Positions 18,636 through 46,544 of a DNA stretch of 51,417 nucleotides are shown here, piece by piece. Source of the DNA: Clostridia bacterium (GTDB taxonomy: Bacteria; Bacillota; Clostridia; Christensenellales; RUG350); NCBI GenBank assembly GCA_017407285.1, contig JAFQWW010000065.1, positions 1-51,417 on the forward strand, given 5' to 3'. The translations under genes were made by a program, and so were the position numbers. Each line of letters opens with the position of its first letter. The first letter of the stretch is position 1. The notes beneath the pieces were generated by a model, which did not search any database, was not told where the DNA came from, and was given only the letters and a program-made list of their open reading frames with translations.

Positions 18636-18663
18636 AAAATTATAAAATTTTTTGGAGGTTATT

Positions 18664-19812
18664 ATGGCTAACAGAATTATCGTTAACGAACAATCCTATC
18701 ACGGCGCAGGCGCAAGATACGAGATTGCAAACGTCGTAAAAGCAAGAGGATACAAAAAAGCCTTTATCTGCTCGGACAAAGCCACCTTTGACGTAGGCGT
18801 AACGGGCAAGGTTTTATCCGTTTTGGACGGAGAAAAACTCGATTACGTTCTCTATACGGATATCGTCCCCAACCCCACTATTGAAAACGTTTTATCCGGT
18901 GTGGACGCATTCAAAAAGAGCGGAGCGGATTATATAATTGCGGTAGGCGGAGGCTCTAGTATCGACACCGCAAAAGCAATAGGTATTATTATTGCCAACC
19001 CCGAATTCGAAGACGTTAGAAAACTTGAAGGCGTAGCACCTACCAAAAATCCTTGCGTACCCACGATAGCAGTACCAACAACGGCTGGAACGGCTGCCGA
19101 GGTTACTATAAACTACGTCATAACGGATAAAGAAAAAATGAGAAAATTCGTGTGCGTAGATCCCCACGACATTCCTTCCGTTGCTATAGTTGATAGCGAA
19201 ATGATGGAAACTATGCCCAAAGGTCTTACCGCATCTACCGGTATGGACGCATTAACTCACGCTATAGAGGGCTATATCACCAAAGGCGCTTGGGAAATGA
19301 CCGATATGTTCCACTTAAAAGCTATCGAGATAATATCTAGAAGTTTGAGAGGCGCAGTTCAAAACACCAAAGAAGGCCGTGAAGGTATGGCGCTTGGTCA
19401 ATACGTTGCAGGTATGGGATTTTCTAACGTAGGCTTGGGTATCGTGCACTCCATGGCTCATGCGTTAGGCGCGGTGTACAACACTCCCCACGGTGTAGCA
19501 AACGCTATTTTGCTTCCTACCGTTATGGAATATAACGCAGACGCAACTGGAGAAAAGTATCGCGAGATTGCACGCGCTATGGGCGTAAAAGGTGTAGACG
19601 ACATGACTCAAGACGAGTACCGCAAAGCAGCAGTCGACGCAGTCAAGAAACTCTCCATAGACGTAGGCATACCCCAAGACCTCAAAGCAATCGTAAAAGA
19701 AGAAGATATCGACTTCTTGGCTCAATCCGCTATGGACGACGCTTGCCGTCCCGGCAACCCCAAAGATCCCACCAAAGCCGACATCATCAATCTCTACAAA
19801 AACCTACTCTAA
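18664..19812 (+). CDS. fucO: Lactaldehyde reductase / L-1,2-propanediol oxidoreductase (iron-containing ADH)
   Basis: The ATG at 18664 follows GGAGGT. Long blocks match FucO as I remember it: MANRIIVNE..., GGGSSIDTAKA, TTAGTAAEVTINYVITD, FVCVDPHDIP, MALGQYVAGMGFSNVGLG, NTPHGVANAILLP. Confidence 0.9.
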   Translation: MANRIIVNEQSYHGAGARYEIANVVKARGYKKAFICSDKATFDVGVTGKVLSVLDGEKLDYVLYTDIVPNPTIENVLSGVDAFKKSGADYIIAVGGGSSIDTAKAIGIIIANPEFEDVRKLEGVAPTKNPCVPTIAVPTTAGTAAEVTINYVITDKEKMRKFVCVDPHDIPSVAIVDSEMMETMPKGLTASTGMDALTHAIEGYITKGAWEMTDMFHLKAIEIISRSLRGAVQNTKEGREGMALGQYVAGMGFSNVGLGIVHSMAHALGAVYNTPHGVANAILLPTVMEYNADATGEKYREIARAMGVKGVDDMTQDEYRKAAVDAVKKLSIDVGIPQDLKAIVKEEDIDFLAQSAMDDACRPGNPKDPTKADIINLYKNLL

Positions 19813-19855: not shown

Positions 19856-21292
19856 TTAAATTTCAACGCGTCCATCTGAACACTGTACGTAAGTCGCTGT
19901 TACGGCTTCAACCCAATAGTTTTCTTTCAATACCTTTGTATTCCACTCTTCAATTGTACCTAAATACGTTATACTTTCGATGGTTCGCCCTCTAAACGCA
20001 TATTCTCTAATAATAGAAACACTCTTAGGAATTGTTATATTCTCTCCTCTGTACATTAAAAACACGGCACTTCCTATTTCTTCAATTTTTGCATATTCAT
20101 TCCAAACGATTTCTGCAGAACACTCATAAAAAGCTTGTGGACCAATATATATGGTGTTTTCTGGAATATATATCCGTTCCAAGTTTCCACAAAAGCTAAA
20201 TGCAAAGCTTTCTATTCTTTCTACTGTTTCTGGAATTACAAATTCAACCTTCTCACTTGCAATACAATGTAAATAAAGCGTTTTTGTGTCTTTTGTGTAC
20301 AAAGCATCTTCTATTGCAACAAACGTATCACTGCCGTCTTCCACAAAAACATGAGCAAGTGCATCGAAATCACCCAAGAAATTTTCACCTATATCTACCA
20401 CCGTTTTCGGCACACTAAACGTTTTAATACCGTCGCAATTATATATTGAATATTCTCCAAATTCAGCAATCTTACTATTCTCTGCAAAAGTTATTTCTTG
20501 AAGATTTTTACAGCAATATATTGCAAAATCATCAAAATTCTCTACTTCTGCAGGAACTTCAAAGCACGTATCTGCTTTCCCTGTTGCATATTTAACTAAA
20601 GTCTTTCCGTCTTTAGTATATAAATTCCCATCAATAGTTTTATAATATTCACTATTTTTATCTACTACTATTTCATTAAGACTGTCTTCATAATAAGTAA
20701 ATATCGGCTTTTCTATAACTATGCCTGCTGAAATATACATAGATTCATATTTGCTAGGAGAAACGAACCCTTTCAACCCCACAATTTTTTCACCATTTAT
20801 TTGTGACGGAATTATTATATCATTCAAAGTTTGCCCTAGCATTGTCAATGAAGTTATATTTGATTCAGAAACGTTAAACATGTCAGCAGGATTATATACA
20901 GACTCTCCGTCCCCCGCTCTAAATACCATTTCATCCCCTAATACGCCAGTTTTAGGATCTCCAGAGTAAACCTTCGCCATATATGTAACATCCTCCGGAA
21001 GGTCAAATACTGCTACACCAAATTTCCCTGTAGAACAAATGACTTCCCCTTTAAAAGAATATGATTTACCTGTGTTGGTGTCAGTCAACACTATTCCATA
21101 CTCTTCGTTTGCGTTACTTACCGTACCAAATACGATATGCGCAGTGCCTTCGTGTTCTCCGTCATCGTACTCGCCAATGTATATATCGGTATGCGTACTT
21201 GCACTATTTTCTGCAAAGGAAACACTAGTGAAAACCGTTATGATAAATGCAAAAATAAATAATGCTAAAAATGCTTTACGTGCCACCTTCAT
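19856..21292 (-). CDS. Secreted leucine-rich-repeat (BspA/LRR_5-type) protein with a shared N-terminal module
   Basis: The signal peptide is MKVARKAFLALFIFAFIITVFTSVSFA. Residues ~36-118 are homologous to the N-terminus of the 1548-aa protein. The rest carries LRR_5-like repeats (e.g. IPETVERIESFAFSFCGNLERIYIPENTIYIGPQAFYEC). Confidence 0.8.
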   Translation of the reverse strand: MKVARKAFLALFIFAFIITVFTSVSFAENSASTHTDIYIGEYDDGEHEGTAHIVFGTVSNANEEYGIVLTDTNTGKSYSFKGEVICSTGKFGVAVFDLPEDVTYMAKVYSGDPKTGVLGDEMVFRAGDGESVYNPADMFNVSESNITSLTMLGQTLNDIIIPSQINGEKIVGLKGFVSPSKYESMYISAGIVIEKPIFTYYEDSLNEIVVDKNSEYYKTIDGNLYTKDGKTLVKYATGKADTCFEVPAEVENFDDFAIYCCKNLQEITFAENSKIAEFGEYSIYNCDGIKTFSVPKTVVDIGENFLGDFDALAHVFVEDGSDTFVAIEDALYTKDTKTLYLHCIASEKVEFVIPETVERIESFAFSFCGNLERIYIPENTIYIGPQAFYECSAEIVWNEYAKIEEIGSAVFLMYRGENITIPKSVSIIREYAFRGRTIESITYLGTIEEWNTKVLKENYWVEAVTATYVQCSDGRVEI

Positions 21293-28041: not shown

Positions 28042-29580
28042 TTATTTCGCTACAGCCTCATCATAGTTTTGTTCGTCCTCTTCGGAGAACGCAAGCGCTT
28101 CTTCGTAAGCTTCTTCACCTGCTTTTACGTTCTTCACGTCCAGTTTAGCACCAATTATAGAAGCGGCAAGACCTAAGATAAATCCGGGGATAAGTTCGTA
28201 AAGTCCGGTGCCAAATCCACCAAAAGCTATCCACAACGCAACTACCACGCCACCAGTAATCATACCGGCAATAGCACCGCGATAGGTAAACTTTTTCCAA
28301 TACAAGGACAAAACGATGGAAGGACCAAACGCTGCGCCGAAACCTGCCCAAGCGTAGGATACGAGATCCATAATGCCACCAAGACCAGGAAGAGCCGCTA
28401 TAATGAAGGCAACCACTGCTACTACGATAACTACGATTTTACCTACTAACAAGGTTTCCTTTTGAGTCGCACTTTTGCGAAGGATAGGTTTGTAGATATC
28501 GCTAGTGAACGAGGACGACGCTACCAAAAGTTGGCTATCTGCCGTACTCATAGCAGCAGCAAGAATAGCGGACAAGAATATACCAGAGACGAATGCAGGG
28601 AAAACGATTCTAACGAGGTTTATAAATACCATCTCGCTGTTTCCGCCAAGGTCTAATAAACCTGCCTCTACTGCCGCTCTACCAACTACTGCGATAAACG
28701 CTGCCATAGCAAGGGTGATAACAACCCAAACGGTTGCAACACGACGAGACTTCTTAATCATACCACTACTCTTTATAGACATAAATCTAACGAGAATGTG
28801 AGGCATACCACAGTAACCTAATCCCCAAGCAAGTCCGTTTAATATAGTTGCGATACTCTCACCGTTCAATTCTCCACCCGGAATGAGGTTGAAGAAATTA
28901 GCATCTTTTGCAAGAATAGTGGAGAAATCTAAAGCACCCGAACCATTCACACCCGTCATAGATACGAACACGGGAACGAAAATAACTGCGCCAAGCATCA
29001 AAAGCGCTTGGAAGAAGTCCGTCCAACAAACTGCCTTAAATCCACCCATAAAGGTATAAGCAAGCATAATTACTGCAAATATTACCATAGCCAAAATGAA
29101 GGAGTCCATGTTCAATACGGACTGGAAGAGCTGTCCACCTGCTTTCATACCGGACGCTACGTACACCGTGAAGAACACGAGGAATATGATAGCGGAGGTT
29201 ACTTGCAAAGTTTTGCCTGCAGATTTGAAACGGTTGTTTAAGTATTGCGGAATAGTGATAGCATCTCCCAACGCTTGAGAGAACTTTCTAAGTCTGCCTG
29301 CAACGAGCAACCAGTTCAAATAAGTACCGATTGCAAGACCGATAGCGATCCAAACCTCACCAAAACCTAAAGCCAAGATAGAACCGGGAAGTCCCATCAA
29401 AAGCCAACCACTCATATCTGATGCTTGAGCGGACAAAGCGGCAACGTAAGGTCCCATCTTTCTGCCACCCAAGAAATAGCCCGTTTGGTTTTGGGCTTTA
29501 TCCTTCAACATAAAGAATGCGCCTATACCAAGCATAGCTACGAAATAAAGTATAAAAGCTAATAATTCGCCTAATCTCAT
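28042..29580 (-). CDS. putP: Sodium:proline symporter (SSF family)
   Basis: This is a 512-aa polytopic protein. The N-terminus and the GYFLGGRKMGP motif are typical of PutP/SSF. Confidence 0.8.
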   Translation of the reverse strand: MRLGELLAFILYFVAMLGIGAFFMLKDKAQNQTGYFLGGRKMGPYVAALSAQASDMSGWLLMGLPGSILALGFGEVWIAIGLAIGTYLNWLLVAGRLRKFSQALGDAITIPQYLNNRFKSAGKTLQVTSAIIFLVFFTVYVASGMKAGGQLFQSVLNMDSFILAMVIFAVIMLAYTFMGGFKAVCWTDFFQALLMLGAVIFVPVFVSMTGVNGSGALDFSTILAKDANFFNLIPGGELNGESIATILNGLAWGLGYCGMPHILVRFMSIKSSGMIKKSRRVATVWVVITLAMAAFIAVVGRAAVEAGLLDLGGNSEMVFINLVRIVFPAFVSGIFLSAILAAAMSTADSQLLVASSSFTSDIYKPILRKSATQKETLLVGKIVVIVVAVVAFIIAALPGLGGIMDLVSYAWAGFGAAFGPSIVLSLYWKKFTYRGAIAGMITGGVVVALWIAFGGFGTGLYELIPGFILGLAASIIGAKLDVKNVKAGEEAYEEALAFSEEDEQNYDEAVAK

Positions 29581-29725: not shown

Positions 29726-31210
29726 TTAAAACAAGGTAGCAGGAACGAAGAAGTAGATACAGAAAAGTACGGTAACAACGATAGCGACAACGCTTATATT
29801 CCATACGGGTTTTTCGTTCTTTTCTTTGTTTGCTGCATACTTGATAACGTTTACAACGTAAGCTACGATATGCAATACGGTGTAGAGAATCAAACCAACA
29901 CCAATACCCTTAGTGATAGAGTAACCAAGGAGCATAACGACGATAGTCATAAATGCAGAGGTAGCGTTGATAGGATTGGAAACGTCAATTGACTTGATAT
30001 TGTTCTTCATCATAAGTACGCCTACGTAGATCAATGCAGATGCAGTAGCTGCACCGGGGATTGCTGCGAACAAAGGCATAGCAAAGATAGCAAGGAAGAA
30101 CATGATAGCAGTCGTCAAAGCGGTCAAACCGGTTCTACCACCAGCGGATACACCAGCACCGGACTCTACGAACGTGGTTACGGTAGAGGTACCGAGCATA
30201 GCGCCAGTACAAGTAGCAACTGAGTCAGAGATCATAATCTTGTCGTAGTTGTGAGGTTTGTTGTTCTCATCGGACAAAATTCTATTACCACCACAGCAAC
30301 CAACGATAGTTCCCATGGTATCGAACATGTCTATCATACACATAGTGATGATAACCATGATGATGGTGAAGATATGACCGTTTGTAAAGAGAGTGGTCAA
30401 ACCTTGACCAAATGATAAGAATACGCTATTTTCTCCGCCGAAGAAACCTGCGAAGTTATCCCAGAATGCCCAAGAAATACCACCGTTACCAGAAATAACA
30501 GAAAGGTCGGTAACACCCAAAGGAATACCAATAATAGCTGCGCCCAAGATACCGATAATAACGGAGCCTTTAACCTTGAGATGATCAAGTACGGTAATTA
30601 AAATCAAACCGATCAAGCAAACGCCAGCAGGAGCAATAGCAGCACTCCAAGTAGAGAAGTTAACGAAGTCAACCAACGTGAAGGGGTTGTCTACGATAAC
30701 GCCAGCGTTTTGGAAACCGATAAATGCAATAAATAAACCGATACCAACCGAAATAGCGGAGCGTACGGATACGGGCATGCCGTCAAATACTGCCTCACGG
30801 AAAGTCTTACCTTTAATTTTGATCAAAGATAAAAGCAAGAAAATGATACCGGAAATGAATACCATTGCAAAAGCTTTGCCAAGCGTAAATTGGACACCGT
30901 AAGTCTTAAGTGCGCCAGCGCCAACTAAACCACCAAGCATAGAGTTAAGACCCATACCAGAAGCTTGAGCCAAAGGCATTTTTGCAAAGATAGCCATCAA
31001 AAGAGTACCGATGATAGCACCAAAAGCAGTAGCCATAAAGACTGCAGGCCAACTGGGATCTGCTCTATTAAAGCCCAAAATCTGATCCGGGTTAACCGTC
31101 AAAATGTACGCCATCGCAAGGAAGGTAACTATACCTGCAATGATTTCCGTTCTGACGTTCGTCTGTTTCTTCTCAGGATCGAATCCCAAGAGATTACCAA
31201 ACTTAGACAT
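29726..31210 (-). CDS. NCS2-family nucleobase permease (AzgA/PbuG-like adenine/guanine/hypoxanthine transporter)
   Basis: The protein is 494 aa and polytopic. The N-terminus ...TNVRTEIIAGIVTFLAMAYILTVNP is typical of this family. Confidence 0.8.
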   Translation of the reverse strand: MSKFGNLLGFDPEKKQTNVRTEIIAGIVTFLAMAYILTVNPDQILGFNRADPSWPAVFMATAFGAIIGTLLMAIFAKMPLAQASGMGLNSMLGGLVGAGALKTYGVQFTLGKAFAMVFISGIIFLLLSLIKIKGKTFREAVFDGMPVSVRSAISVGIGLFIAFIGFQNAGVIVDNPFTLVDFVNFSTWSAAIAPAGVCLIGLILITVLDHLKVKGSVIIGILGAAIIGIPLGVTDLSVISGNGGISWAFWDNFAGFFGGENSVFLSFGQGLTTLFTNGHIFTIIMVIITMCMIDMFDTMGTIVGCCGGNRILSDENNKPHNYDKIMISDSVATCTGAMLGTSTVTTFVESGAGVSAGGRTGLTALTTAIMFFLAIFAMPLFAAIPGAATASALIYVGVLMMKNNIKSIDVSNPINATSAFMTIVVMLLGYSITKGIGVGLILYTVLHIVAYVVNVIKYAANKEKNEKPVWNISVVAIVVTVLFCIYFFVPATLF

Positions 31211-31292: not shown

Positions 31293-31616
31293 TAATAATT
31301 AAAAAATTTTGTCATTTTTTGCCAATTTTTTTGATGACATAATTGTTATACGCGCGCGTATATAATATATACCTACTTACTATATAAGAATATTACTATT
31401 TATAATGCTATATCGAATGGCATAGGCTTGTGGATTTCGAGAGTTCACGCGACTCCTTCGCTCCTTCCTTTCGATTTTGTAAGTACGCTTTATTAAACGA
31501 TTTAGATGCAAGAAAGACGAGAAGGATAATGGGCTTTGAGATGCGCGTACTATTCGTACGCAATTCGAAAAGACCTGCAATCCGACGACTTATTTCGTAG
31601 CATATAAATCGTTTAA

Positions 31617-31657
31617 CAAAAAAAGACTTACCCTATATTAGGGTAAGTCTTTTTTTT
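31617..31657. terminator. Bidirectional terminator hairpin, copy 1 of a duplicated module
   Basis: GACTTACCCT-ATATT-AGGGTAAGTC is flanked by A7 and T8 runs. Confidence 0.7.
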
Positions 31658-31721
31658 CGTATCTTTTTAAAAACTCGCTTCGCTCGTTCCTTTCGATTTC
31701 ATTGTCTTCTATTTGTTTAAC

Positions 31722-31761
31722 AAAAAAAGACTTACCCTATATTAGGGTAAGTCATTTTTTT
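31722..31761. terminator. Bidirectional terminator hairpin, copy 2 (immediately after the surface-protein gene)
   Basis: It has the same 10-bp stem as copy 1 and lies 14 nt after the stop at 31775. Confidence 0.75.
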
Positions 31762-31774
31762 CGTATCGAAACGA

Positions 31775-34051
31775 TTATTTTCTCTTAATGAAGAGAACTA
31801 CTACTGCAGCAACGAGACCAGCTACCAAGATGGAGAAGATGATAATGATAGTGGTTACAGTTCCCTGCAACGTTTCTACGTTCTTATTAGCCTCAGCGAG
31901 GTCTTTTGCATGATTGCTTTGAGCAAGTTCAAGCTGTTCGTCGAGAAGCTTAATCTGATCGTTAGCAGCGGTAAGAGCAGCCTGGAGTGCATCGATGTCG
32001 CCTTCTGCAACTTCCAATGCAGCCTTGATGTTAGCAACGATACCGTTAAGTTCGGTTACGTTAACTACTTTACCAGCAGCAAGTGCAGCTTCGTAAGCAG
32101 CTTCGATCTCACCTACTTTGTTGTAGTTGCCGATAAGTGCTCTCTGCTCTTTAGTGAAGGAGTTGTACATAGATTTAACGAGTCCGAGGATAACGGGAGT
32201 ATCAGAGGTGATATCGTATCCGCTAGCAACTACTGCGTCGTACAATTCGTCAACGATGGATTCGAAAGAATCAGCGATGATGAGTTTCTGAACCTGTTTG
32301 ATGAATGCTTCTGCAAGACCAGGATAGTTAGCATCAATGTATGCTTTCTGGCTCTCGCTCAAATCACTGTAAGCATCGTCTACTGCGATGATATCAGCGA
32401 TATCAGTGGTCTCAACGTTGTCACCCAATGCAACTACGTCTTCCATAGCTTCTGCAACAGTCGTTGCTTTAGCTTCTGCTTTAGTGATAATCTCAACGAG
32501 TTTTGCGTAATCGTCTACGTTATCTTCAGCAGTGTAGTCTTGCTCTGCAACGGGCATAGCGTCGTAAGTAGCTTTAAGTGCGTATGCTTTAGCCAAGTCG
32601 ATAGGAAGAGCGTTTGCATCAACAATGATGTTTGCGATGTTGTCATAGTTTCCAACAAGTGCTAATACGTCAGACTCCCATTTTTCGAGTCTAGCGATGA
32701 TAGCGTCGCGAGCAGCTTCAACGTCTTCGAGTTTAGCAAGGTTGATGATATCAGCGAGATCTCCGTCGTAAGCATCTACTAATGCTCTTGCAGCAGCGAT
32801 TTCTGCTCTATCGGTGATTTCAACGTCTGCAGCATCAGGCAAAGCTTCGATAGCTTCGTAAGCGTCTACCAATGCGATATGACGCATCATAGCGATGAAG
32901 TGTTTGTATTCGGTGAGGTAATGAGCCTCAAGGTATGCTTGTGCGTTATCATCTACGTCTTCAAGATCTTCGTATCTGTCAGCGATAGCTTCAACGCCTG
33001 CACGCCAAGTAGCCTCTGCAGTCAAATTGGTAGGAGCAACGATAGCACCCATGTCGTCTGCAAGGTCTTTAATGAGGTTGTTCAAGTAGTTGTAATCTGC
33101 AAGAGTATCTGCGTATTTATCATATGCTTCTGCATATTTGTTCCATACGGAATCATCAGCAGTAACAGCGATGCTAGCCATGGTAGCTTGTGCACCAGTG
33201 GAGAGTTTCTCAAATTCAGCTTTAGCAGCCAAAACTTGACCGAAGGAAGCGTCGGTAGCGGTGATGGGCTCAACGATAGCGTTTACAGCGTCAACCCAAA
33301 CGTCTGCTACTGCGAGCAAATCTTCGAGCTCTGCCAATTTCTCAAACATAATGTGAGAGTTGGTAACTGCAGCTCTTTCCATGTCGCTTGCCAAACTGTC
33401 GTAATCTGCCTTGATGCCAACGAGCTCGGTTGCGCAATCAGCGTCGTCTAAGGTAACGGTGTTATTCCATTTAACTACGAAGTTGTTGATAGCAGCGATG
33501 ATAACGTTTACTTTACCTTCCATAGCCAATGCACGTGCAGCATAGAAATCGTATGCTTCAGCATAGGTGGGGTAATCAACGTTGTCGAAAGCTTCGCCAG
33601 CAAGTCTTGCTACCATTTCGGGTGCAACAGCCTCTGCTTTCAAATACAAGGTACGAGCCTCGATGTATTTAGCAAGAATGTTGGTCTGAGAATCAAATGC
33701 AGCAGCCATAGCGTCGATAGAAGCTTTGAGTTCTGCAAAGTCTTCTGCGAGTTCAGCATATTTAGCTTCTGCCTCAACGAGGGTAGCATAGTTAGCAACG
33801 ATAGTGGGTTCACCAGCAGCAGCTGCTTTATCTGCAGCTACGATATCAGCGTCAAGAGCCTCAAAAGCATCTCTTGCAGCGTCAATCTTTTCTGCACAAT
33901 CGGTGGTGAATACTACGGTACCGATGTTAGCGATAGCAGCCTCTACGTCGTCTATTTCATCTTCGATACCAGCGATAACGTCTTCCATCTCTTCGAGAAG
34001 ATCATAGTTGGATACTTCTGCTTTCAAATTGTTGTAAGCAACGTCGTCCAA
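31775..34051 (-). CDS. Ala/Asp/Glu-rich helical-repeat surface protein, C-terminal portion with coiled-coil and TM anchor (in frame with the upstream ORF)
   Basis: This ORF has no signal peptide, no convincing RBS, and only a TTG start. It has repeated helical modules (e.g. AIEALPDAADVEITDRAEIAAARALVDAYDGDL). The C-terminus has a coiled-coil followed by VTTIIIIFSILVAGLVAAVVVLFIKRK. Confidence 0.6.
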   Translation of the reverse strand: MDDVAYNNLKAEVSNYDLLEEMEDVIAGIEDEIDDVEAAIANIGTVVFTTDCAEKIDAARDAFEALDADIVAADKAAAAGEPTIVANYATLVEAEAKYAELAEDFAELKASIDAMAAAFDSQTNILAKYIEARTLYLKAEAVAPEMVARLAGEAFDNVDYPTYAEAYDFYAARALAMEGKVNVIIAAINNFVVKWNNTVTLDDADCATELVGIKADYDSLASDMERAAVTNSHIMFEKLAELEDLLAVADVWVDAVNAIVEPITATDASFGQVLAAKAEFEKLSTGAQATMASIAVTADDSVWNKYAEAYDKYADTLADYNYLNNLIKDLADDMGAIVAPTNLTAEATWRAGVEAIADRYEDLEDVDDNAQAYLEAHYLTEYKHFIAMMRHIALVDAYEAIEALPDAADVEITDRAEIAAARALVDAYDGDLADIINLAKLEDVEAARDAIIARLEKWESDVLALVGNYDNIANIIVDANALPIDLAKAYALKATYDAMPVAEQDYTAEDNVDDYAKLVEIITKAEAKATTVAEAMEDVVALGDNVETTDIADIIAVDDAYSDLSESQKAYIDANYPGLAEAFIKQVQKLIIADSFESIVDELYDAVVASGYDITSDTPVILGLVKSMYNSFTKEQRALIGNYNKVGEIEAAYEAALAAGKVVNVTELNGIVANIKAALEVAEGDIDALQAALTAANDQIKLLDEQLELAQSNHAKDLAEANKNVETLQGTVTTIIIIFSILVAGLVAAVVVLFIKRK

Positions 34052-34057
34052 AGCGTT

Positions 34058-34918
34058 TTAATCTGCTCTTGCATCTTCGATATCAGCAAGCTTGGTGTAG
34101 TAAACTACGCCTTCTTCTACGCTTGCGTATACGTTAGCGATAGTCTCTTCTACTGCAGCTGCTTTAGCATACTGATTAGCGAGAGCTTCTACTGCATCGT
34201 GATAATCGTCGAGGTTGGTAACCAAAGCCCATTCCTCTGCGAATTCGTCTGCCAAGAAATCGGTATCATAGATATCGTACATAGCGTCGAATGCAGCGTC
34301 GATAGAATCTTCACTAGCAAGAACGATTTCGTTGTTGTATTCAACGATAGCGTCGATAGCGTCGATAGCAGCCTGAAGTTTTGCTTTGAGCTCAGCAAGT
34401 CTTGCGTATGCTTTAGCAAAGTTATCGAATGCGTTCTCAGGCAAGTTCTCTACCCATGCTTTAGCCTCAGCGGTGAGACCTTCGTACTTAGCATAGTAGG
34501 TATCGAGAGTAGCTTCGTCGGAAAGATAGAATCTCTCTCCGTCGTAGTTGTTGAGTTTATCGTACAAAATACTTACAACGTAGGACTCAACGGCGAAAGG
34601 CTCAGCAGATGCTTTCTGAATAGCCTCGTAAGTAGCTTTTACGTCTGCGGACAAAGCTGCTTTGTCGTCGTTACCCAATGCAGTGTACAAATCGATAGCC
34701 TTATGTACTTTCTTTGCATAATCGGGATGTGCTGCGCTGAAGATATTGTCAGCGGTGATTCCTGCATCTTTGATCTGTTCAGTAACGTATTTTTCGAAAC
34801 CTGCTTTACCAGCAAACTCGAGATCGTCTGCGCTAGCACCGATAGCGGTGAAGCAACATACGAATACGAATACCAACATCAAGATAGCAATTAAACTTTT
34901 CTTAGTTGTCGTTGTCAT
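34058..34918 (-). CDS. Ala/Asp/Glu-rich helical-repeat surface protein, N-terminal portion with signal peptide
   Basis: The signal peptide is MTTTTKKSLIAILMLVFVFVCCFTAIGASA. It has the same helical-repeat composition as the downstream ORF. It ends at the TAA at 34058-34060, which is in frame with the downstream ORF. Confidence 0.7.
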   Translation of the reverse strand: MTTTTKKSLIAILMLVFVFVCCFTAIGASADDLEFAGKAGFEKYVTEQIKDAGITADNIFSAAHPDYAKKVHKAIDLYTALGNDDKAALSADVKATYEAIQKASAEPFAVESYVVSILYDKLNNYDGERFYLSDEATLDTYYAKYEGLTAEAKAWVENLPENAFDNFAKAYARLAELKAKLQAAIDAIDAIVEYNNEIVLASEDSIDAAFDAMYDIYDTDFLADEFAEEWALVTNLDDYHDAVEALANQYAKAAAVEETIANVYASVEEGVVYYTKLADIEDARAD

Positions 34919-35528
34919 TTTATTTCTCCTTCAATAAAATTTCGTTTTGTTGTTTTTTGTTTTTCTTTCGTTTCTTTACTACACAATTTTAGTCTTTAGT
35001 AGACAATTTTACTCTTTCAATACTCTTTTTCCACTAACCATACACAAATCTTCTCCTTTTTGGTATAACTTTTTTCGGGAAAAATCCCTGTCAGGGCATA
35101 AATTGCCTATTACACTGCCTAATTTTAACACATATATTTTTGCTTGTCAACTACCAATCAATATTTATTTTATTTTTTCACTCAAATTTTTTGAAAAATT
35201 TTATCAAAATCACCAATTCCGTCTTGAATCGTACCTTTTGGCAGTTTTAAAAGCTAAATCGACGCTTTTTTTATACTCCACCAATTATACTATGCGCAAC
35301 TTGCTCCACACTTGACAAGGTTCGAAAAAATCATAGAAACGCATGCGTGATTTTCGTGCTTTTTGCGTAATTAAAATGTAATATGTTTATACTAATTAGT
35401 ATATTATATATAATAACACGCGCACGCGTAAAACACAATACTTTTGGAGAAAATTTTTCAAACTTTTTCATCGAAATTTTTTTGCGCAAACAAAAGGTCT
35501 CTTTCCTTAAAATTTTCAAGTTTTGAAA

Positions 35529-35567: not shown

Positions 35568-36815
35568 TTATCTCTTGGAGAGAACGCTCTTTTCGTAAGC
35601 TTCTACGTCCTCGAACCAATCTAAATCTCCTTTTACTCCGCAACGAGCGCAATATTCTTCCCAAATAGCGCCGAAAGGCAAGGTCTTGACTGCTTCTTGT
35701 TTTACGAGAAGTTCGGTGTGCGCGCCCTTATCCTGCAAATCCTTAAGCATAGCGTTAGGAGTACACAAAGCGGACAAGAGTGCTTTTTGCCAAGAACGGA
35801 AACCTACCGCCCAAGCAGCGATACGGTTGATGCTTGCATCAAAGTAGTCCAAAGCCATATATACTCTATCCAAAGCGTTGCAACGAACGATTTCTTTTGC
35901 CATCTCTTTAGTTTCGTCGTCAAAAATCAATACGTGGTCGGAGTCCCATCTAACGCCACGAGTAATGTGAAGAGCGATTTCAGGGAAGAAACACAAGAGC
36001 GCGGGGATTTTGTCGGATATGTACTCCATAGGATGATAGTGACCGTTATCCATCAAAGGCAAGCAACCGTCGTGAGTTGCAGCGAAACTCAAGGTAAACT
36101 CTGCAGAACCGGTGGTGTAAGACTCAACGCCGATACCGAAAACTTTGCTCTCAACGCAAGGTTTAACCAAATTCTTATCAAACGGTTCGCTCAAGATCTC
36201 CTCAATAGCCTCTTTATATCTCATACGAGGTCCCATTCTATCTGCAGGGATATCCTTAAAACCGTCACCCGTCCAAATGTTCATAACGCAAGGGAATCCG
36301 GTTTCTTTTGCCATATATTCAGAAATACGAACGCACGCTTTACCGTGTTCAATCCAGAATTTACGAATGTTCTCGTCGGGAGAGGACAAAGTCAAACCGT
36401 CTGCCTTGGGGTGAGCAAAGAAAGTGGGGTTGAAATCAATACCCATGCCTCTCTCTTTTGCAAAATCTACCCATTTCTGGAAATGTTTGGGTTCGAGTTT
36501 GTCTCGATCCACGAATTCACCCTTTTCAAATATAGCGTAGCAAGCGTGAACGTTGAGTTTTTTAGCGCCGGGACACAAAGACATAACCATCTCCATATCC
36601 GCCATCAACTCGTCAGGATTGGTTGCACGACCGGGATAATTACCCGTGGTCTGGATACCACCGCTCAAAGACTCTGCGCCTTCAAAGCCCAAAACGTCGT
36701 CGCCTTGCCAACAATGCAAGGAAATAGGTATATTTTTAAGTTTTTCGATAGCAGCGTCGGTATCGATACCGAGTTCTGCGTACAAGCTTTTTGCCAATTC
36801 GTAACGTGCGCTCAT
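35568..36815 (-). CDS. rhaA: L-rhamnose isomerase
   Basis: The protein is 415 aa. The N-terminal block ...IPISLHCWQGDDVLGFE matches RhaA. Confidence 0.9.
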   Translation of the reverse strand: MSARYELAKSLYAELGIDTDAAIEKLKNIPISLHCWQGDDVLGFEGAESLSGGIQTTGNYPGRATNPDELMADMEMVMSLCPGAKKLNVHACYAIFEKGEFVDRDKLEPKHFQKWVDFAKERGMGIDFNPTFFAHPKADGLTLSSPDENIRKFWIEHGKACVRISEYMAKETGFPCVMNIWTGDGFKDIPADRMGPRMRYKEAIEEILSEPFDKNLVKPCVESKVFGIGVESYTTGSAEFTLSFAATHDGCLPLMDNGHYHPMEYISDKIPALLCFFPEIALHITRGVRWDSDHVLIFDDETKEMAKEIVRCNALDRVYMALDYFDASINRIAAWAVGFRSWQKALLSALCTPNAMLKDLQDKGAHTELLVKQEAVKTLPFGAIWEEYCARCGVKGDLDWFEDVEAYEKSVLSKR

Positions 36816-36972: not shown

Positions 36973-38085
36973 ATGAAAACGGACGTTATAATACCTTCCG
37001 CTGGTAGCGGAACGAGAATGAATAAATCAATAAACAAACTTTTTTTGCCCTTAGGTGACGGTTGCGTTTTGGAAAAAACCTTTCGCGCCTTTCTCTCCCA
37101 CCCCGATATTGAAAATCTTATCGTGCCGTGTAGAGAGGAAGACCAGACTTTTATCCACTCTATAATTGAGAAACTCGGCGCAAACGACAGAATTATATGC
37201 GTGTTAGGTGGAAAAACTCGAACGGAATCGGTGCTAAACGCCCTACGCGAGGTCAAAACGCAAAACCTTTTGATTCACGACGGCGCAAGACCTTTTATTG
37301 ATTCCGACACCATAACGAGGGTTATTCAAAAAACTATTGAGTGTGGCGCGTGCATACCCGTCCTACCCCCTCACGACACAGTAAAAGAGGTAAAAGATAA
37401 CGTGGTCCTATCCACACTAACTCGTGAAAACCTAGCGCTCGTGCAAACTCCGCAAGGATTTAACACACAAAAACTTATATTTGCATACCAAAATAGACGA
37501 GAAGGCGTAGTCTACACAGACGACGCTTCCGTTTACGAGGAGATTGGTCAAGTTCACGTGGTTTTGGGAAATGCGAACAATATCAAACTCACCACCCCTA
37601 ACGACGTCAAAAAAGAATACCTATCGGGCGTAGGCTTTGACGCGCATAGATTTGAAAAAGGTAGAGATTTGATACTAGGCGGAGTCAAAATACCTCATGA
37701 CAAAGGACTTCTCGGTCACTCGGATGCAGACGTAGTACTCCACGCCCTTATGGACGCCCTACTCTCAAGCGTACACGAGCGAGATATAGGTTATCATTTC
37801 CCGTGCACGGAGGAGTTTAAGGATATATCAAGCGTAGAACTTTTGAAAAGGGTGTTGAAAATTTTACAAACACACGACGCGGAAATCGTCAACGCCTCTA
37901 TCGTAATAGTTGCAGAAAAGCCCAAACTCTCCCCTCATATAAACGAAATCGGGGAAAATATAGCAAAATTATTAGGCATTTCGAGCCAAAAAGTTTCCTT
38001 GACTGCAACCACAACGGAAAAACTCGGTTTTACGGGGCGTGAAGAGGGTATTGCGTGCGAGGCTATAGTTTCGGTTAGAGCGTAA
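36973..38085 (+). CDS. ispDF: Bifunctional IspD/IspF (MEP cytidylyltransferase / MEcPP synthase)
   Basis: The N-terminal half has IIPSAGSGTRM (IspD). The C-terminal half has GVGFDAHRFEKGRDLILGGVKIPHDKGLLGHSDADVVLHAL (IspF). Confidence 0.9.
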   Translation: MKTDVIIPSAGSGTRMNKSINKLFLPLGDGCVLEKTFRAFLSHPDIENLIVPCREEDQTFIHSIIEKLGANDRIICVLGGKTRTESVLNALREVKTQNLLIHDGARPFIDSDTITRVIQKTIECGACIPVLPPHDTVKEVKDNVVLSTLTRENLALVQTPQGFNTQKLIFAYQNRREGVVYTDDASVYEEIGQVHVVLGNANNIKLTTPNDVKKEYLSGVGFDAHRFEKGRDLILGGVKIPHDKGLLGHSDADVVLHALMDALLSSVHERDIGYHFPCTEEFKDISSVELLKRVLKILQTHDAEIVNASIVIVAEKPKLSPHINEIGENIAKLLGISSQKVSLTATTTEKLGFTGREEGIACEAIVSVRA

Positions 38086-39877: not shown

Positions 39878-41290
39878 ATGTTAGAAGTTATTCAAACGAT
39901 CAACTCTTACCTCACTGACTACGCTCTTATCATTCTTTTGGTAGGAACGGGTATCTTCTTCACGATTCGCACTCGTTTCGTGCAAGTTAGATGTTTTGGT
40001 GAAGGTATGCGTAACGTTTTCGGAAAGATTAAGTTCCGTGGTGGCGCGCAGAAATCCGGTATGAGTTCCTTCCAAGCTCTTGCGACGGCGGTTGCCGCCC
40101 AAGTAGGTACGGGTAACATAGTCGGTGCGTGCGGTGCTATATTGATTGGTGGTCCCGGTGCTATTTTCTGGATGTGGATCATCGCGTTCTTCGGTATGGC
40201 TACTATCTACGCAGAGGCTACCCTTGCTCAAAAGACCAAGGTCGTTGGCGAAGACGGACAGGTTGCTGGTGGTCCCGTATACTACATTAAGCAAGCGTTC
40301 AAGGGCAAATTTGGAAAATTCTTGGCTGGTTTCTTTGCAGTAGCTATTATATTGGCTTTGGGCTTCATGGGCTCTATGGTTCAGTCCAACTCCATAGGTG
40401 TAGCAGTTAACGGTGCAACTAGTATCCCCACTTGGGTAGTTGGTATCGTTATCGCAGGACTTTGCGCTCTTATCTATATCGGTGGAACCAAACGTCTTGC
40501 TGCCGTTACCGAAAAACTCGTACCCATTATGGCTCTCGTTTATATCGTTGGTGGTTTGCTCATTATTGCATTCAACATCACGGCAATACCCGAAACCTTC
40601 GGCTTGATATTTAACTGCGCTTTCAATCCTACCGCTATCGCAGGTGGCGCACTAGGTTACACCTTAAAAGCTGCTATTAGCCAAGGCGCTAAACGTGGAC
40701 TTTTCTCCAACGAAGCAGGTATGGGTTCTACCCCTCACGCTCACGCTCAAGCAAACGTTAAAACTCCCCACGAACAGGGAACGGTTGCTATGGCAGGTGT
40801 GTTCATCGATACCTTCGTAGTATTGACTATAACCGCGCTTATCGTTATCTCCACCTTGTACGCAAACGGCGGACCTTTGTCTATAGGCGTTATCGGTGAC
40901 GTTACTAAGAACAACATGGTTCAGTTGAGTATCGCAAGTTTGTTTGAAAACGCAACCTTGGGCTCTACCGTTGGATCTATCTTCGTAGCCGTATGTTTGT
41001 CTTTCTTTGCATTCTCCACTATTATTAGTTGGAACTTGTTTGGTAAGATCAACTACAACTACCTCTTCGGCAAAAAGACCACGATTATCTACTCTATCGT
41101 AGCTATCGTGTTCACCTTCCTCGGCTCTATCCTCTCCAGTGACTTGGTATGGGAGCTCACCGACTTCTTTAACTACTTGATGGTTATCCCGAACGTTATA
41201 GCACTTTGGGCACTCTCCTCTCTCGTTGCAAAAGAAGCAAAAGATGCAAGACGCAGAAAGAAAGGGGAATTACCCTTACAAAATCAGTAA
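39878..41290 (+). CDS. Alanine/glycine:cation symporter (AGCS family)
   Basis: A GGAGGT RBS is present. The AGCS signature is SFQALATAVAAQVGTGNIVG. Confidence 0.9.
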   Translation: MLEVIQTINSYLTDYALIILLVGTGIFFTIRTRFVQVRCFGEGMRNVFGKIKFRGGAQKSGMSSFQALATAVAAQVGTGNIVGACGAILIGGPGAIFWMWIIAFFGMATIYAEATLAQKTKVVGEDGQVAGGPVYYIKQAFKGKFGKFLAGFFAVAIILALGFMGSMVQSNSIGVAVNGATSIPTWVVGIVIAGLCALIYIGGTKRLAAVTEKLVPIMALVYIVGGLLIIAFNITAIPETFGLIFNCAFNPTAIAGGALGYTLKAAISQGAKRGLFSNEAGMGSTPHAHAQANVKTPHEQGTVAMAGVFIDTFVVLTITALIVISTLYANGGPLSIGVIGDVTKNNMVQLSIASLFENATLGSTVGSIFVAVCLSFFAFSTIISWNLFGKINYNYLFGKKTTIIYSIVAIVFTFLGSILSSDLVWELTDFFNYLMVIPNVIALWALSSLVAKEAKDARRRKKGELPLQNQ

Positions 41291-41342: not shown

Positions 41343-42620
41343 CTAATCGTTGCAAAAAAAGTCGGAGGATTTTGCAGCGTTCGCCTTTCTTCCAACCGAA
41401 ACGTTGTCCTCTCTCCTGTTTCTGAGTTCTACAACAGGGCTTGGCGCTACTTGATATCTATAGTCCATACCGTAGTGACGAATATACTCATCAATCACGT
41501 TGTGTGAGGGAACTATATCGGTGTTGGGGTTGACTATGTTTTGGTATTTGAAAAAGTCCGCGTCCTCTTTTAGTTCTTTTATCTTATAATACTCCTCTTT
41601 GACCGAGGTAAATTGTACGGTATCGGCAAGTATACGTCTAACGTACTCGATATTTTGATGCAAGGACAAAGGAGCAGGGAACTCTCCGTCGGGGATAACC
41701 TCGTACCAGTCCTTGTTTTCGTATTTTTTGAGTAAGTCCACCGCCCTATGCAAATGTGTAATCTCGTAATCAAGATATTCTTCCCAAAGATTTTTGATAT
41801 ACGAATCGGTTTCGGTCATATAGCAAGACCAATAGAGATAACATTCGCAGTATTCGTGCCACAAAAGCATTTCAAACCAACTTGCGGACGCGTCCATTAA
41901 GGATTCGTAATGGCTAACGTGCTCCTCTTCCACCAACGCAATCTCTTGATAAAGTCTGCGACCTATATCGCTTTTAGCAAAATTGGTTACGTTCATATAG
42001 TAGTTCATAGTTTGTTGTTCCGCTGCCGTGATTATCATCGTAGTCAAAACGGTCATAACGTCCGACACTTTGGCGTTTATAGGTCTTTTTACGTTGTCGA
42101 TAGGATATCTATGTTCCGATATCGTAGGTCTACCGGGCATAATCTCGGTGTATCTACCCACTAACCACTCGGCGTACACCCCTTCGGTTGCTTCGAGTAG
42201 ATTTGCGTAGCGATATAGGTGGTCAAAGTCCTCTAAAAGCGCAAAATCTAGAGCGGTCTTGACGTAGCAGTCCACCTCTCTTTTTGCAAGTTCGGCAGTC
42301 AAATCTACCGCTAGCTGTTCGTAACCAATGGTGTGTTCCAAAATGGACTCGTCGCAAGGTTTTAAAAGTGAGATTTTTAGTTGTTGTTGCTTTTCAACCT
42401 CACGAGTCAAGGCTAACTCTCGCCTCAAGTCGTTGTTAGGTGCGTGGCGCGCGAAGTTGTGCGAAAACCAATTCGCCTCAAATTCCGTACCGTTCATCAA
42501 AATAATACGCGTTTTTGTATAAGGGTCCACCTCCCTTTTGTCATACGGCTTGGGATATAGTTGCGCCCAATTTTGGAACTGCTTATCTATACTACTCGCC
42601 TTTTCTAAAAACGGATTCAT
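41343..42620 (-). CDS. Ferritin-like / di-iron carboxylate superfamily protein (function unknown)
   Basis: The start is trimmed to the ATG at 42620 (MNPFLEKASS...), preceded by GGAGGGA. It is predicted to be helical and has ExxH-type motifs (LLEDFDHLY, LVEEEHVSHYESL). Confidence 0.45.
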   Translation of the reverse strand: MNPFLEKASSIDKQFQNWAQLYPKPYDKREVDPYTKTRIILMNGTEFEANWFSHNFARHAPNNDLRRELALTREVEKQQQLKISLLKPCDESILEHTIGYEQLAVDLTAELAKREVDCYVKTALDFALLEDFDHLYRYANLLEATEGVYAEWLVGRYTEIMPGRPTISEHRYPIDNVKRPINAKVSDVMTVLTTMIITAAEQQTMNYYMNVTNFAKSDIGRRLYQEIALVEEEHVSHYESLMDASASWFEMLLWHEYCECYLYWSCYMTETDSYIKNLWEEYLDYEITHLHRAVDLLKKYENKDWYEVIPDGEFPAPLSLHQNIEYVRRILADTVQFTSVKEEYYKIKELKEDADFFKYQNIVNPNTDIVPSHNVIDEYIRHYGMDYRYQVAPSPVVELRNRREDNVSVGRKANAAKSSDFFCND

Positions 42621-42829
42621 AAATCCCTCCTTGTCTTTTCTTTCTATCCTATGCAAGGGGGAATTTTTTTGTTAAAAATAAAAAGCCACTAGCTTAGTGG
42701 CGTAGCGATAAATCCCTATCGCTACGCCACAACTATATTTGCCTAACGGCAAGTTATATTGCTATCGCAGTGATATTTTGCTTTGCAAAGTGATATTTTC
42801 ACTATCGTGAAAGTTGAGGCAAATATATT

Positions 42830-43046: not shown

Positions 43047-44387
43047 TTATTTTAAGAATACCTCTATTACGGGTACGACTACGTCGGGTTTTACCTCGGG
43101 GAGGTTAAAGTATAGAGTCGTTTCATCGTGCTCTGCGTATTTAGTGAGTACACCGGCAGGACGTATTGGCATTTTGTTGTACAAAATCTCACTGCCGTCG
43201 TGCAAGAACTGCGCGTAATCAACTTTATCCGCCATGTTTGCCATTTCAAGTTTCTTGAAAGGATATTCAAACAAATGGATATACAAGCGTTTTCCATCAT
43301 TTGACTGCGTGAGTTTGCAACCCTCGGGCGCTTCAAACTGCGCGTCTGCCTTTCCGCAACCGTAGATAGATCTATCGTTATACTTCATCCACTCTTCGTA
43401 TACCCCAAGCGCACTCTCTGCACGTTTGTCAAGATAACCCCTTGAGGTCGGTCCTATATTCATAATAAGGTTTCCGCCACACGATACGATATTTATCAAT
43501 AACTGTATAAGCATGGTGGGAGATTTCCAAGTCTGCTCATCTCTATGATATCCCCAAGAACCGGAGAAGGTGTGACACGCTTCCCATACCAACGGCTCGC
43601 CCGTTTCTTTATCAAATACACCGTACTTTATAGCGGACTGTTCGGGAGTGGTAATATCTTGCAATATTCCCGTTCTATCGTTGATAATTATATCGGGTTG
43701 GAGTTCACGAATCATTTTAACGAGGTTTTCTGCGTCCCAATCCTCTCGACCTTTGCCCTTCATCCAATCTTTAGCGTCCTCCCAAGGACAAAGCGATCCC
43801 CAGTTTTTGTCCGTATAGGAAAAGTCGAACCACAAAATGTCTATTTTGCCGTAGTTGGTCATTATCTCGCGCACTTGATTAAACAAATACTCGCGATATT
43901 TAGCCATATCTCTACCCTGATTTTGCTCGTACGCATCCTTGTCGTTACGTCTAGGATGCAACCAGTCTATAGTAAAGTCGGGATGATGCCAATCTATCAA
44001 AGAGTGGTATAATCCCACCTTCAATCCTACCTCACGGCACGCATCTACGAACTCTTTTACGATATCCTTGCCGTAAGGGGTGTTCATAACGGTGTAGTCA
44101 GAGTATTTAGAATCGAATAAGCAAAAACCTTCGTGGTGCTTGGTGGTAAGTACGGCGTACTTCATACCCGCTTTCTTAGCTCTCTTTACCCAATCTCGAA
44201 CGTCCAACATATCGGGATTGAAATATTTGAAATATTTGTCGTACTTTTCCTCGCTAATACACTCTATATTTTTGATCCACTCGTGACGAGCAGGCAAGGA
44301 ATAGAGTCCGAAATGTATAAACATTCCAAATCTATCGTGTACGAACCAATCGGTATCAACTATGGTTTTAAGTTTTTTAGATTGCAT
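43047..44387 (-). CDS. Alpha-L-fucosidase (GH29)
   Basis: The start is trimmed to the ATG at 44387 (MQSKKLKTIVDTDWF...), which has an AAGGAG RBS. The GH29 N-terminal block is DRFGMFIHFGLYSLPARHEW. Confidence 0.85.
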   Translation of the reverse strand: MQSKKLKTIVDTDWFVHDRFGMFIHFGLYSLPARHEWIKNIECISEEKYDKYFKYFNPDMLDVRDWVKRAKKAGMKYAVLTTKHHEGFCLFDSKYSDYTVMNTPYGKDIVKEFVDACREVGLKVGLYHSLIDWHHPDFTIDWLHPRRNDKDAYEQNQGRDMAKYREYLFNQVREIMTNYGKIDILWFDFSYTDKNWGSLCPWEDAKDWMKGKGREDWDAENLVKMIRELQPDIIINDRTGILQDITTPEQSAIKYGVFDKETGEPLVWEACHTFSGSWGYHRDEQTWKSPTMLIQLLINIVSCGGNLIMNIGPTSRGYLDKRAESALGVYEEWMKYNDRSIYGCGKADAQFEAPEGCKLTQSNDGKRLYIHLFEYPFKKLEMANMADKVDYAQFLHDGSEILYNKMPIRPAGVLTKYAEHDETTLYFNLPEVKPDVVVPVIEVFLK

Positions 44388-44493
44388 AATAATTATCTCC
44401 TTGAGTGATATGCTTATAATACAAGAGCGCAAGATTATAATCAAGTAATTTATCAAGAAAATATATAACGAAAGTTACTTTTTTCTCGAAAAA

Positions 44494-45132: not shown

Positions 45133-45222
45133 ATCGCCACCTCCGATATTATTATATCACACTTTTTTAGTGATTTCAAGAGGGAATATTGTCGTTTTAC
45201 TAAGGACAAACAAATACGACTA

Positions 45223-45906
45223 TTACAAAATATCTATTATATCTACGAGTTTGTAAACTATTTTATCCGCACAAGACTGACTTTCGTCCTCTCGTCTATG
45301 GTTAAACCATATAGTTTTCATACCATAATCGTGCGCCCCTCTAACGTCTGCGGTCAAAGAGTCTCCTATCATATAGGTTTGCCCCGCCACGATTTCGGGG
45401 AGGCTCGCAAAACAACCGTCAAAAAACTCTCGTTTGGGTTTCGCTACCCCTATATCTCCCGACACGAAGATATGGTCAACGTATTTAATAAGACCAATCT
45501 CGGTGAGTTTTCTATCCTGTTGACCGACGGGGGCGTTACTAGCTATACACACCACGTACTTTTTACTCAAATACGATAAGAGTTCTTCTGCGCCCTCCAT
45601 TTTGACCGCTATCTCTCTCAATCTTTTCCAGAAAACGGATTCAAAGGTAGGACCGTCAAAGTCCACGCCTAATGCGTCAAATATCTTAACCCAACGAATC
45701 TCGTGAAGTTTTTCAAAACTTAATTCCCCTCTTTCCAAACTTCTCCACAACTCGTCGTTAATTTTGAAGAAAACGGATAAAGCGTTGTCTGGTAGAGTCA
45801 AAGAAAAAGCCTCACACGCCTCGTCAAGGGAACGCTTGGCGCACGCCTTAAAATCAAGCAAGGTATCGTCCGCGTCTATAAATACTGCTCTATCTTTTCC
45901 TATCAT
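45223..45906 (-). CDS. HAD-superfamily hydrolase (subfamily IA, YjjG-like)
   Basis: It has the DxD motif FIDADDTLLDF and a late GDS motif (IGDSLTADVRGA). Confidence 0.75.
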   Translation of the reverse strand: MIGKDRAVFIDADDTLLDFKACAKRSLDEACEAFSLTLPDNALSVFFKINDELWRSLERGELSFEKLHEIRWVKIFDALGVDFDGPTFESVFWKRLREIAVKMEGAEELLSYLSKKYVVCIASNAPVGQQDRKLTEIGLIKYVDHIFVSGDIGVAKPKREFFDGCFASLPEIVAGQTYMIGDSLTADVRGAHDYGMKTIWFNHRREDESQSCADKIVYKLVDIIDIL

Positions 45907-46544
45907 AATATTCCTGCATCTCCCATTTTTTGGACGAAAACGTCGGCTTCACTCATCAATTTATCCAAAAATCCTTTTCCCGACTCGTCGTATACGCCAA
46001 CTGCAAACATTCCTGCCTGCTTTACGGTGCGAATAACCTCTAAATTGTCGTCAAAAAAGGCAATTTTATTTTTCTCTACCCCTAGTTCTTGAGCAATCTC
46101 GTCGTATATCTTGGGGTTGGCTTTGGTCATAGCGTAGTCGTCGCAAGTTCGGACTAAATCAAAACTATCCCACAAACCCCAACGCTTTATGCACCCATCT
46201 ATTCGAGAATGTGCGCTAGCCGTCAAAACTGCCGTCTTTTTGCCCAATTTTTTCAAAGATTTAACGTATTCTATTACGCTCTCTTTGGCTTGAACCTTTT
46301 CTAGATACCTAGGCGTGGTGTACTCTACAACCATTTGTCTGAGTTCTTCCGCCGAGTATTTCATTCCGGGCATTTTCTCAAGATATTTCGTGCCACCAAC
46401 GTCCCCTAAAGGGGTAAGTATTTCTATTATATTTTCGGGATACTCTACCCCACTCTTTTTAATGGCTTGCATCATACCCTCGGACCACGTGGGCATAGAG
46501 TCGGCTAAAGTTCCGTCAAAATCAAATATATACGCCTCTATCAT
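45903..46544 (-). CDS. HAD-superfamily phosphatase (beta-phosphoglucomutase-like)
   Basis: It has the motif IFDFDGTLADS. It overlaps both neighbouring genes by 4 nt. Confidence 0.75.
   Translation of the reverse strand: MIEAYIFDFDGTLADSMPTWSEGMMQAIKKSGVEYPENIIEILTPLGDVGGTKYLEKMPGMKYSAEELRQMVVEYTTPRYLEKVQAKESVIEYVKSLKKLGKKTAVLTASAHSRIDGCIKRWGLWDSFDLVRTCDDYAMTKANPKIYDEIAQELGVEKNKIAFFDDNLEVIRTVKQAGMFAVGVYDESGKGFLDKLMSEADVFVQKMGDAGIL

Follow-up and report, generated by a model that had tools for sequence, protein, structure and literature searches.

A predicted helical surface-protein gene of a Clostridia bacterium split by a single in-frame ochre codon

Premature stop codons that remove the anchors of bacterial surface proteins are known natural polymorphisms, a familiar example being the premature-stop alleles of inlA in Listeria monocytogenes. 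Here we analyze a comparable gene at positions 31775-34918 of the minus strand of contig JAFQWW010000065.1 (Clostridia bacterium, assembly GCA_017407285.1), in which a single TAA codon splits a long reading frame; the whole stretch of 51,417 nucleotides (nt) that was analyzed is referred to as the window. As in inlA, a single-base change makes a stop codon in a gene for a (here, predicted) surface protein with a signal peptide and a C-terminal anchor, release of a truncated N-terminal fragment is predicted, and intact and truncated alleles are found within one species. InlA differs, however, in having leucine-rich repeats and an LPXTG sortase signal, and in that its premature stops recur at appreciable frequency and have a known phenotype, whereas the protein considered here is predicted to be all-helical, with a plain transmembrane anchor, and its stop allele comes from one assembly, an error being possible.

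In its layout, the predicted product also recalls the surface proteins that Gram-positive bacteria build from extended helical bundles, for example, spectrin-like three-helix arrays, Ebh/FIVAR-GA rods and the helical N-terminal part of the S-layer protein SbsC. Common features are the signal peptide at the N-terminus, many consecutive three-helix units of ~70 amino acids (aa) and a C-terminal anchor followed by a basic tail. The product does not, however, match any of them significantly in sequence or fold, and it has no LPXTG motif. Finally, an in-frame stop codon inside a coherent frame is reminiscent of programmed readthrough and recoding (selenocysteine at TGA, pyrrolysine at TAG, leaky termination), from which the present locus differs in that the codon is TAA, is not conserved, has no recoding context and is a regular terminator.

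One reading frame and its interruption

Around the break, the minus strand reads ...GAT ATC GAA GAT GCA AGA GCA GAT TAA AAC GCT TTG GAC GAC GTT... An open reading frame (ORF) of 286 aa with an ATG start (34058..34918) ends in this TAA, and an ORF of 758 aa with a TTG start (31775..34051) follows in the same frame. Translation of 31775-34918 in a single frame yields 1047 codons plus a terminal TAA, with exactly one internal stop, at codon 287 (34058..34060), after which the frame stays open for 760 codons, up to the C-terminal transmembrane anchor. An earlier examination of the window from its letters and ORF list (the sequence-only reading) had described two same-frame ORFs flanking this TAA and taken them for parts of one coherent protein; the former claim agrees with the sequence, the ORF list and the one-frame translation, and the latter is borne out by an intact 1047-aa allele in the same species and by single-ORF orthologs (both below). 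Together, these comparisons show that a lone in-frame TAA divides what is a single coherent gene into the 286-aa and 758-aa ORFs.

A Kyte-Doolittle scan of the merged protein detects only two hydrophobic segments, residues 2-33 and 1014-1047, in keeping with the proposal of the sequence-only reading that the upstream part carries the only signal peptide and the downstream part the only transmembrane anchor. The signal peptide, identified by the first of these segments and by its conservation in the family, occupies codons 1-30 (MTTTTKKSLIAILMLVFVFVCCFTAIGASA, then DD; 34829..34918, minus strand), and its cleavage site is predicted from an AXA motif (ASA, then DD). The C-terminal anchor with its basic tail (VTTIIIIFSILVAGLVAAVVVLFIKRK; 31778..31858, minus strand) is indicated by the second segment, a transmembrane stretch followed by KRK, by conservation and by a helix at residues 976-1046 of the structural model; it is preceded by a conserved VETLQGT motif and a coiled coil. 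The chain between the two hydrophobic segments contains 20% Ala, 11% Asp and 9% Glu and has a net charge of about -130.

The translation signals are distributed just as unevenly. The gene is preceded by the Shine-Dalgarno (SD) sequence GAAGGAG (34926..34932, minus strand; -9.5 kcal/mol to the anti-SD), where the yardstick, 26 genes of the window, has a mean of -7.5 kcal/mol with a standard deviation of 4.0. At the in-frame restart candidates past the TAA, the SD energies are -2.5 kcal/mol (TTG 34051), -3.0 kcal/mol (TTG 34027) and -1.1 kcal/mol (ATG 33988). By this measure, the second part of the gene has no ribosome-binding site (RBS), and the remark of the sequence-only reading that the downstream TTG lacks a convincing SD stands. 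Moreover, the TTG called as the start of the downstream ORF (34049..34051, minus strand) is an internal leucine codon of the family: the string GCT-TTG-G is kept in all ortholog DNAs, and Leu290, which this TTG encodes, is invariant in both alignments (A1 and A2). Judging from the ORF list, the SD energy and hydropathy, the 5' fragment (codons 1-286; 34061..34918, minus strand) is the only part expected to be translated. The 3' fragment (codons 288-1047; 31778..34057, minus strand) contains no further lesion and is left without translation signals.

When the merged sequence, with X at the stop, was used as the query, six proteins of 1051-1081 aa (P0002-P0007) were found to cover 99-100% of it, colinearly and at 40-47% identity. 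The alignment across the site is gapless, and the column of the stop holds an invariant tyrosine: Tyr287 is constant in eight family members, including one at 32% identity, and the corresponding codon of the orthologs is TAC in all DNAs compared. Two of the orthologs are positional, one in a metagenome-assembled genome designated "Clostridia bacterium" (locus L001, protein P0007) and the other in GCA_054271775.1 (locus L019, protein P0005). Both come from other species, lie beside rhaA in the order MatE-IspDF-RhaA-gene and are intact (1051 and 1081 aa); a scan of the GTDB representative genomes retrieved the orthologous locus only in L001.

A profile search of 1.84 billion cluster representatives produced 2377 matches at E ≤ 1e-3, among them 164 at E ≤ 1e-30. 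Of the 150 best representatives, 52 align across the break in a single stretch, and only the window's own fragment starts there; residues ~145-390, which span the stop, recur as an uninterrupted unit of homology in many larger multi-domain proteins. These results bear on the notion that the locus consists of two separate genes, one encoding a small secreted protein and the other a separately translated tail-anchored protein. The public record evidently holds both a 286-aa (P0026) and a 758-aa protein (P0001) from NCBI, as this notion would have it. However, no relative is so arranged, the matches cross the junction, the homology unit spans the break, the downstream part lacks an RBS and an intact allele is present in the same species, so that we give the two-gene arrangement virtually no credence. 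All orthologs compared contain a continuous ORF, and two separate genes with a genuine RBS for the second, which the sequence-only reading had named as the arrangement that would speak for distinct genes, were found in none of the relatives.

The intact allele and the nature of the stop codon

The 90%-identity cluster of the window fragments includes a protein of 1047 aa (P0027) that equals the merged protein with tyrosine at position 287. This protein is encoded in five metagenome assemblies (loci L002-L006), in the same order as in the window, rhaA-gene-permease-symporter. In a base-by-base comparison, the 3144-bp gene shows a single difference, at gene base 861 (window position 34058), which makes the codon TAA in the window and TAC in five of the five assemblies; on the plus strand, this base is T here and G in the others. 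Aligned with the window over as much as 15,144 bp, the five loci show 99.94-99.98% identity and no indels, and indels are likewise lacking throughout the 47.5 kb over which the window is comparable with conspecific loci. A frameshift or indel origin of the break was rejected given the gapless alignment at the site and this lack of indels.

The TAA probably arose by a nonsense mutation that is very recent and confined to the strain or population sampled here. A C-to-A transversion in the third position of codon 287 would have converted the codon of the invariant tyrosine, TAC, into the ochre codon TAA. At every other base the gene matches the intact allele, so the event would be very recent (or not biological). 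A real mutation is favored because the contig is otherwise clean: it lacks indels, its other genes are unbroken and its differences are of the kind expected under purifying selection. Indeed, apart from the few changes private to the window, the differences from its relatives are mainly synonymous third-position transitions, which look like natural strain variation under purifying selection, unlike random noise. On these grounds, the base at 34058 is probably real.

The competing explanation is a base-call, sequencing or consensus error, in which case the organism would have TAC, the gene would be intact and the split into two proteins would be an artifact of the contig. Several observations weigh on the side of such an error and against a real mutation. 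Only 1 of the 3144 bases differs from the five other assemblies, the base at 34058 is taken from the assembled contig consensus alone, and the TAA allele is present in this one assembly only; the truncated 286-aa product is encoded on no other contig on record, so that the allele is unique to this contig among the gene products on record. The change strikes an invariant residue, as a random error could. At sites covered by four or five assemblies, the differences private to the window number three, namely, 31754 (intergenic), 34058 (the Tyr287-to-stop change) and 36020, and two of these, 31754 and 34058, are transversions, unlike the synonymous transitions elsewhere, and could stem from damage or error as well as from mutation. 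In addition, ERZ28653896 shares its contig break points with ERZ28019354, and ERZ28654059 does so with ERZ27256748; the intact allele, although found in five assemblies, was therefore probably sampled from no more than two or three biological samples of one study, and these assemblies say little about the population frequency of either allele. A scan of the JGI metagenomes with a 34-mer across the site, with N at the variable base, gave 0 matches for either allele. Against an error stand the cleanliness of the contig, which has no indels over 47.5 kb of conspecific sequence and keeps its other long ORFs intact, and the dominance of synonymous third-position transitions among the other differences; furthermore, consensus substitution errors are rare at normal coverage. 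Altogether, we regard an error as possible but rather unlikely.

Another way to account for the TAA is that it is functional, through programmed readthrough or recoding, or else through restart at TTG 34051, which would result in a full-length or a two-part protein. The frame is kept across the stop and a TTG lies two codons past it, and short-range reinitiation past nonsense codons is known in bacteria. However, the stop is not conserved, conspecifics and orthologs all having TAC at this position, and TAA is the commonest genuine terminator, ending 29 of the 37 gene-sized ORFs of the window (TGA ends 5 and TAG 3). The restart sites have SD energies of only -1.1 to -3.0 kcal/mol compared to the gene mean of -7.5, the TTG is a conserved leucine codon, and a restarted product would lack the signal peptide. 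Finally, no tRNA genes were found in the window, and no Rfam family was detected at the stop or in the 200-nt leader of the gene. A functional stop thus appears very unlikely, and decoding of TAA as tyrosine, or any other readthrough, even less plausible; to our knowledge, no natural sense reassignment of TAA has been established in bacteria. Programmed readthrough had been among the causes listed by the sequence-only reading, and it finds no support in a stop that is TAC in every relative and in a codon that terminates 29 of 37 genes.

Two other candidate explanations were rejected. An altered genetic code does not fit the intactness of the other long ORFs and the dominance of TAA as terminator. 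A ribosomal hop or bypass, from the GAT before the stop to the GAC 12 nt after it, is at odds with the conspecific allele, which has TAC in an otherwise identical sequence, so that an evolved bypass signal is neither required nor conserved.

A nonsense mutation could, in principle, also be a selected polymorphism of the ON/OFF type, in which loss of the anchored protein or release of its N-terminal fragment would help the cell in some hosts, for example, in escape from phages or host antibodies that target the protein; this would be a special case of the nonsense-mutation explanation, with which it is compatible. In the same syntenic loci, the surface protein shows 40-43% aa identity, compared to 63-92% for MatE, IspDF and RhaA. 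It evolves much faster than its neighbors, as is typical of exposed, selected surface molecules, which is in line with selection, as is the occurrence of anchor-removing stops elsewhere, for example, in Listeria inlA. However, the allele is known only once, the site contains neither a repeat tract nor an invertible element and no run of one base longer than 4, and one point mutation is indistinguishable from neutral or mildly deleterious drift, so that we consider a selected polymorphism distinctly unlikely. In a search for a reversible switch at the site, none was found: the longest run is A4, and the inverted repeats within 31500-35300 are the terminator hairpins and weak pairs at chance level. 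Classical phase variation is therefore not supported. If the TAA were selected all the same, the locus would be a natural ON/OFF polymorphism of an uncharacterized family of helical surface proteins.

The sequence-only reading had left four causes of the stop unranked. From that list, we retain the recent nonsense mutation and the error in sequencing or assembly. The population polymorphism is retained only in the form of a possible rare loss-of-function allele, given that the site lacks a switching mechanism, and programmed readthrough is dropped.

The comparison with conspecific assemblies yielded several additional observations. The private change at 36020 falls in codon 266 of rhaA, which is ATA (Ile) here and GTA (Val) in four assemblies, a conservative substitution (V266I) in L-rhamnose isomerase. 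Between the window and ERZ27256748 and ERZ28654059, dense, mostly third-position differences are concentrated at 19437-19518, in the 3' end of an Fe-alcohol-dehydrogenase gene (18652-19812, plus strand), exactly where both contigs end; the segment looks strain-variable or recombinant and appears to break assemblies. In L003 (contig k141_996543 of ERZ28019354), the permease gene contains three differences, at the equivalents of window positions 30564, 30575 and 30577, one of which makes a TAG; the cluster is located ~220 nt from the contig end, and three other assemblies match the window, so these changes are probably contig-end assembly noise in L003 and not in the window. A second lineage, represented by L009 and L010 (ERZ28593618 and ERZ27316844, under another study code), is 98.9% identical to the window in a HAD-hydrolase gene (45220-46033); the records for this lineage contain no surface-protein gene copy that reaches 90% aa identity. 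This lineage is carried by a LIUQ22-1 sample, and the window's species is also contained in SAMN15829898, SAMN15829892, SRR12529059 and SRR12529066; the labels XIEF21-1 and LIUQ22-1 look like study codes, and no paper was found under the run and sample accessions.

The predicted protein and its family

Searches of Pfam and NCBIfam detected no above-threshold family in either half of the protein, only sub-threshold coiled-coil noise; Pfam gave nothing above threshold in any of the eight family members, and a sequence search of the PDB gave no match at E ≤ 1. The AlphaFold2 model of the intact protein, with a predicted local distance difference test (pLDDT) score of 76, is entirely helical and consists of about a dozen units of ~70 residues, with a long-short-short pattern of helices, followed by a 70-residue terminal helix that leads into the anchor; Y287 lies within the helix formed by residues 277-289. 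A separate model of residues 288-590 reached a pLDDT of 87.4 and a predicted template modeling (TM) score of 0.69. Foldseek comparison of the full-length model to the PDB yielded no match at E ≤ 1e-3, the best hits, at 2e-3, being generic helical proteins; for the 288-590 model, the best E-value was 0.87, and the S-layer protein SbsC was matched at E ~1-1.8 with a TM score of 0.26. The TM scores of the best Foldseek matches were all 0.26 or less, and the hits of the 288-590 model, too, were only generic helical proteins.

Neither LPXTG nor a known variant of it was found before the C-terminal hydrophobic segment, where VETLQGT is present instead, and NCBIfam yielded no match to a sorting-signal model. 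Only the tripartite layout of the C-terminus, with VETLQGT, then a hydrophobic stretch and then KRK, is reminiscent of a sortase signal. It was observed separately that the signal peptide (MTTTTKKS...VCCF; 34829-34918) and the C-terminal VETLQGTxTTIIIIFSILVAG...KRK (31778-31880) are near-invariant among the family members, while the body of the protein is 40-47% identical. Such conservation of both leader and anchor appears unusual and may reflect a signal, distinct from LPXTG, that is dedicated to export or sorting.

The helical module of this protein is shared with giant multi-domain proteins that have matches to Big_2, Flg_new, LRR_5 or SLH, in which a helical module of ~100 aa recurs up to 27 times. 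Because of this relationship, together with the layout of the protein and its acidic helical ectodomain, the best reading of the product is a predicted extended, membrane-anchored cell-surface fibril of Gram-positive-type gut Clostridia, with the surface location deduced from these same features. The intact product would comprise a Sec signal peptide, ~980 residues of acidic, Ala/Asp/Glu/Tyr-rich three-helix units, a coiled coil, a membrane anchor and a KRK tail.

Apart from this gene, the window encodes other surface-type proteins, both intact. One is a large protein of ~1550 aa (299-4987, minus strand) with matches to Flg_new, Big_2 and LRR_5, and the other is a 478-aa LRR_5 protein (19856-21292, minus strand).

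Expression signals, neighborhood and expected consequences of the stop

Upstream of the gene, a promoter-like site, TTGACA-17-TAAAAT with an extended -10 TG, was predicted from consensus alone (35122..35150, minus strand; 11 of 12 consensus positions match); a leader of ~200 nt separates it from the gene. An intrinsic terminator (31729..31753, minus strand), with an 11-bp core stem that is extendable to 18 bp with A/T tracts and is followed by a T-run, begins 22 nt past the stop codon of the gene, which is why we consider the gene to be monocistronic. A direct repeat of 72 nt (86% identity), located at 31592-31663 and 31696-31767, doubles the terminator downstream of the gene; each of its copies, the only two in the window, carries the same palindromic, bidirectional hairpin (AAAAAAAGACTTACCCTA/TAGGGTAAGTCTTTTTTT). 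The second single-nucleotide variant private to the window, at 31754 (plus strand, A here and T in all five assemblies), disrupts the outermost A:T pair of the terminator stem in the proximal copy of the repeat.

As chromosomal DNA, the window is unremarkable: long intact ORFs follow one another closely, and no long ORF besides the present one is split. The upstream neighbors of the gene are rhaA (35568-36815, minus strand) and ispDF (36973-38085, plus strand), and downstream of it lie genes for an NCS2-type permease (29726-31210, minus strand) and for putP (28042-29580, minus strand). Two RNA elements were also noticed. A glycine riboswitch aptamer (RF00504; 39731-39823, plus strand; 59 bits against a gathering threshold of 32) is located directly 5' of the gene for a Na+/alanine-type symporter (39878-41290, plus strand), and a match to the Gut-1 RNA motif (RF01706; 42730-42801, plus strand; 51 bits against a gathering threshold of 50) is intergenic, between the minus-strand genes at 41343-42656 and 43047-44456, the latter encoding an alpha-L-fucosidase.

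If the base at 34058 is real, ribosomes would stop at codon 287, and a signal peptide-bearing fragment of 286 aa, ~256 aa after cleavage, would be exported; without the anchor, this fragment, of ~28 kDa, could not stay on the cell. The remaining 760 codons would go untranslated or would give traces of product by restart at weak sites, and such a product would have no signal peptide. The anchored surface protein, of ~110 kDa, would thus be lost. Because the gene has a promoter-like site and a terminator to itself, its neighbors should be free of polar effects.

For annotation, the result means that the record, in which hypothetical proteins of 286 and 758 aa evidently appear as if unrelated, should present one gene of 1047 codons, disrupted or mis-called, and that one candidate for stop-codon recoding is removed. 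More generally, the analysis outlines a family of at least 164 clusters (50% identity) at E ≤ 1e-30 that is uncharacterized and has neither a Pfam family nor a structural homolog. Its members are very acidic, predicted all-helical surface proteins with a signal peptide and a transmembrane anchor, from gut-type Clostridia. If the mutation is real, the strain would be a natural knockout that could help to assign a function to this family.

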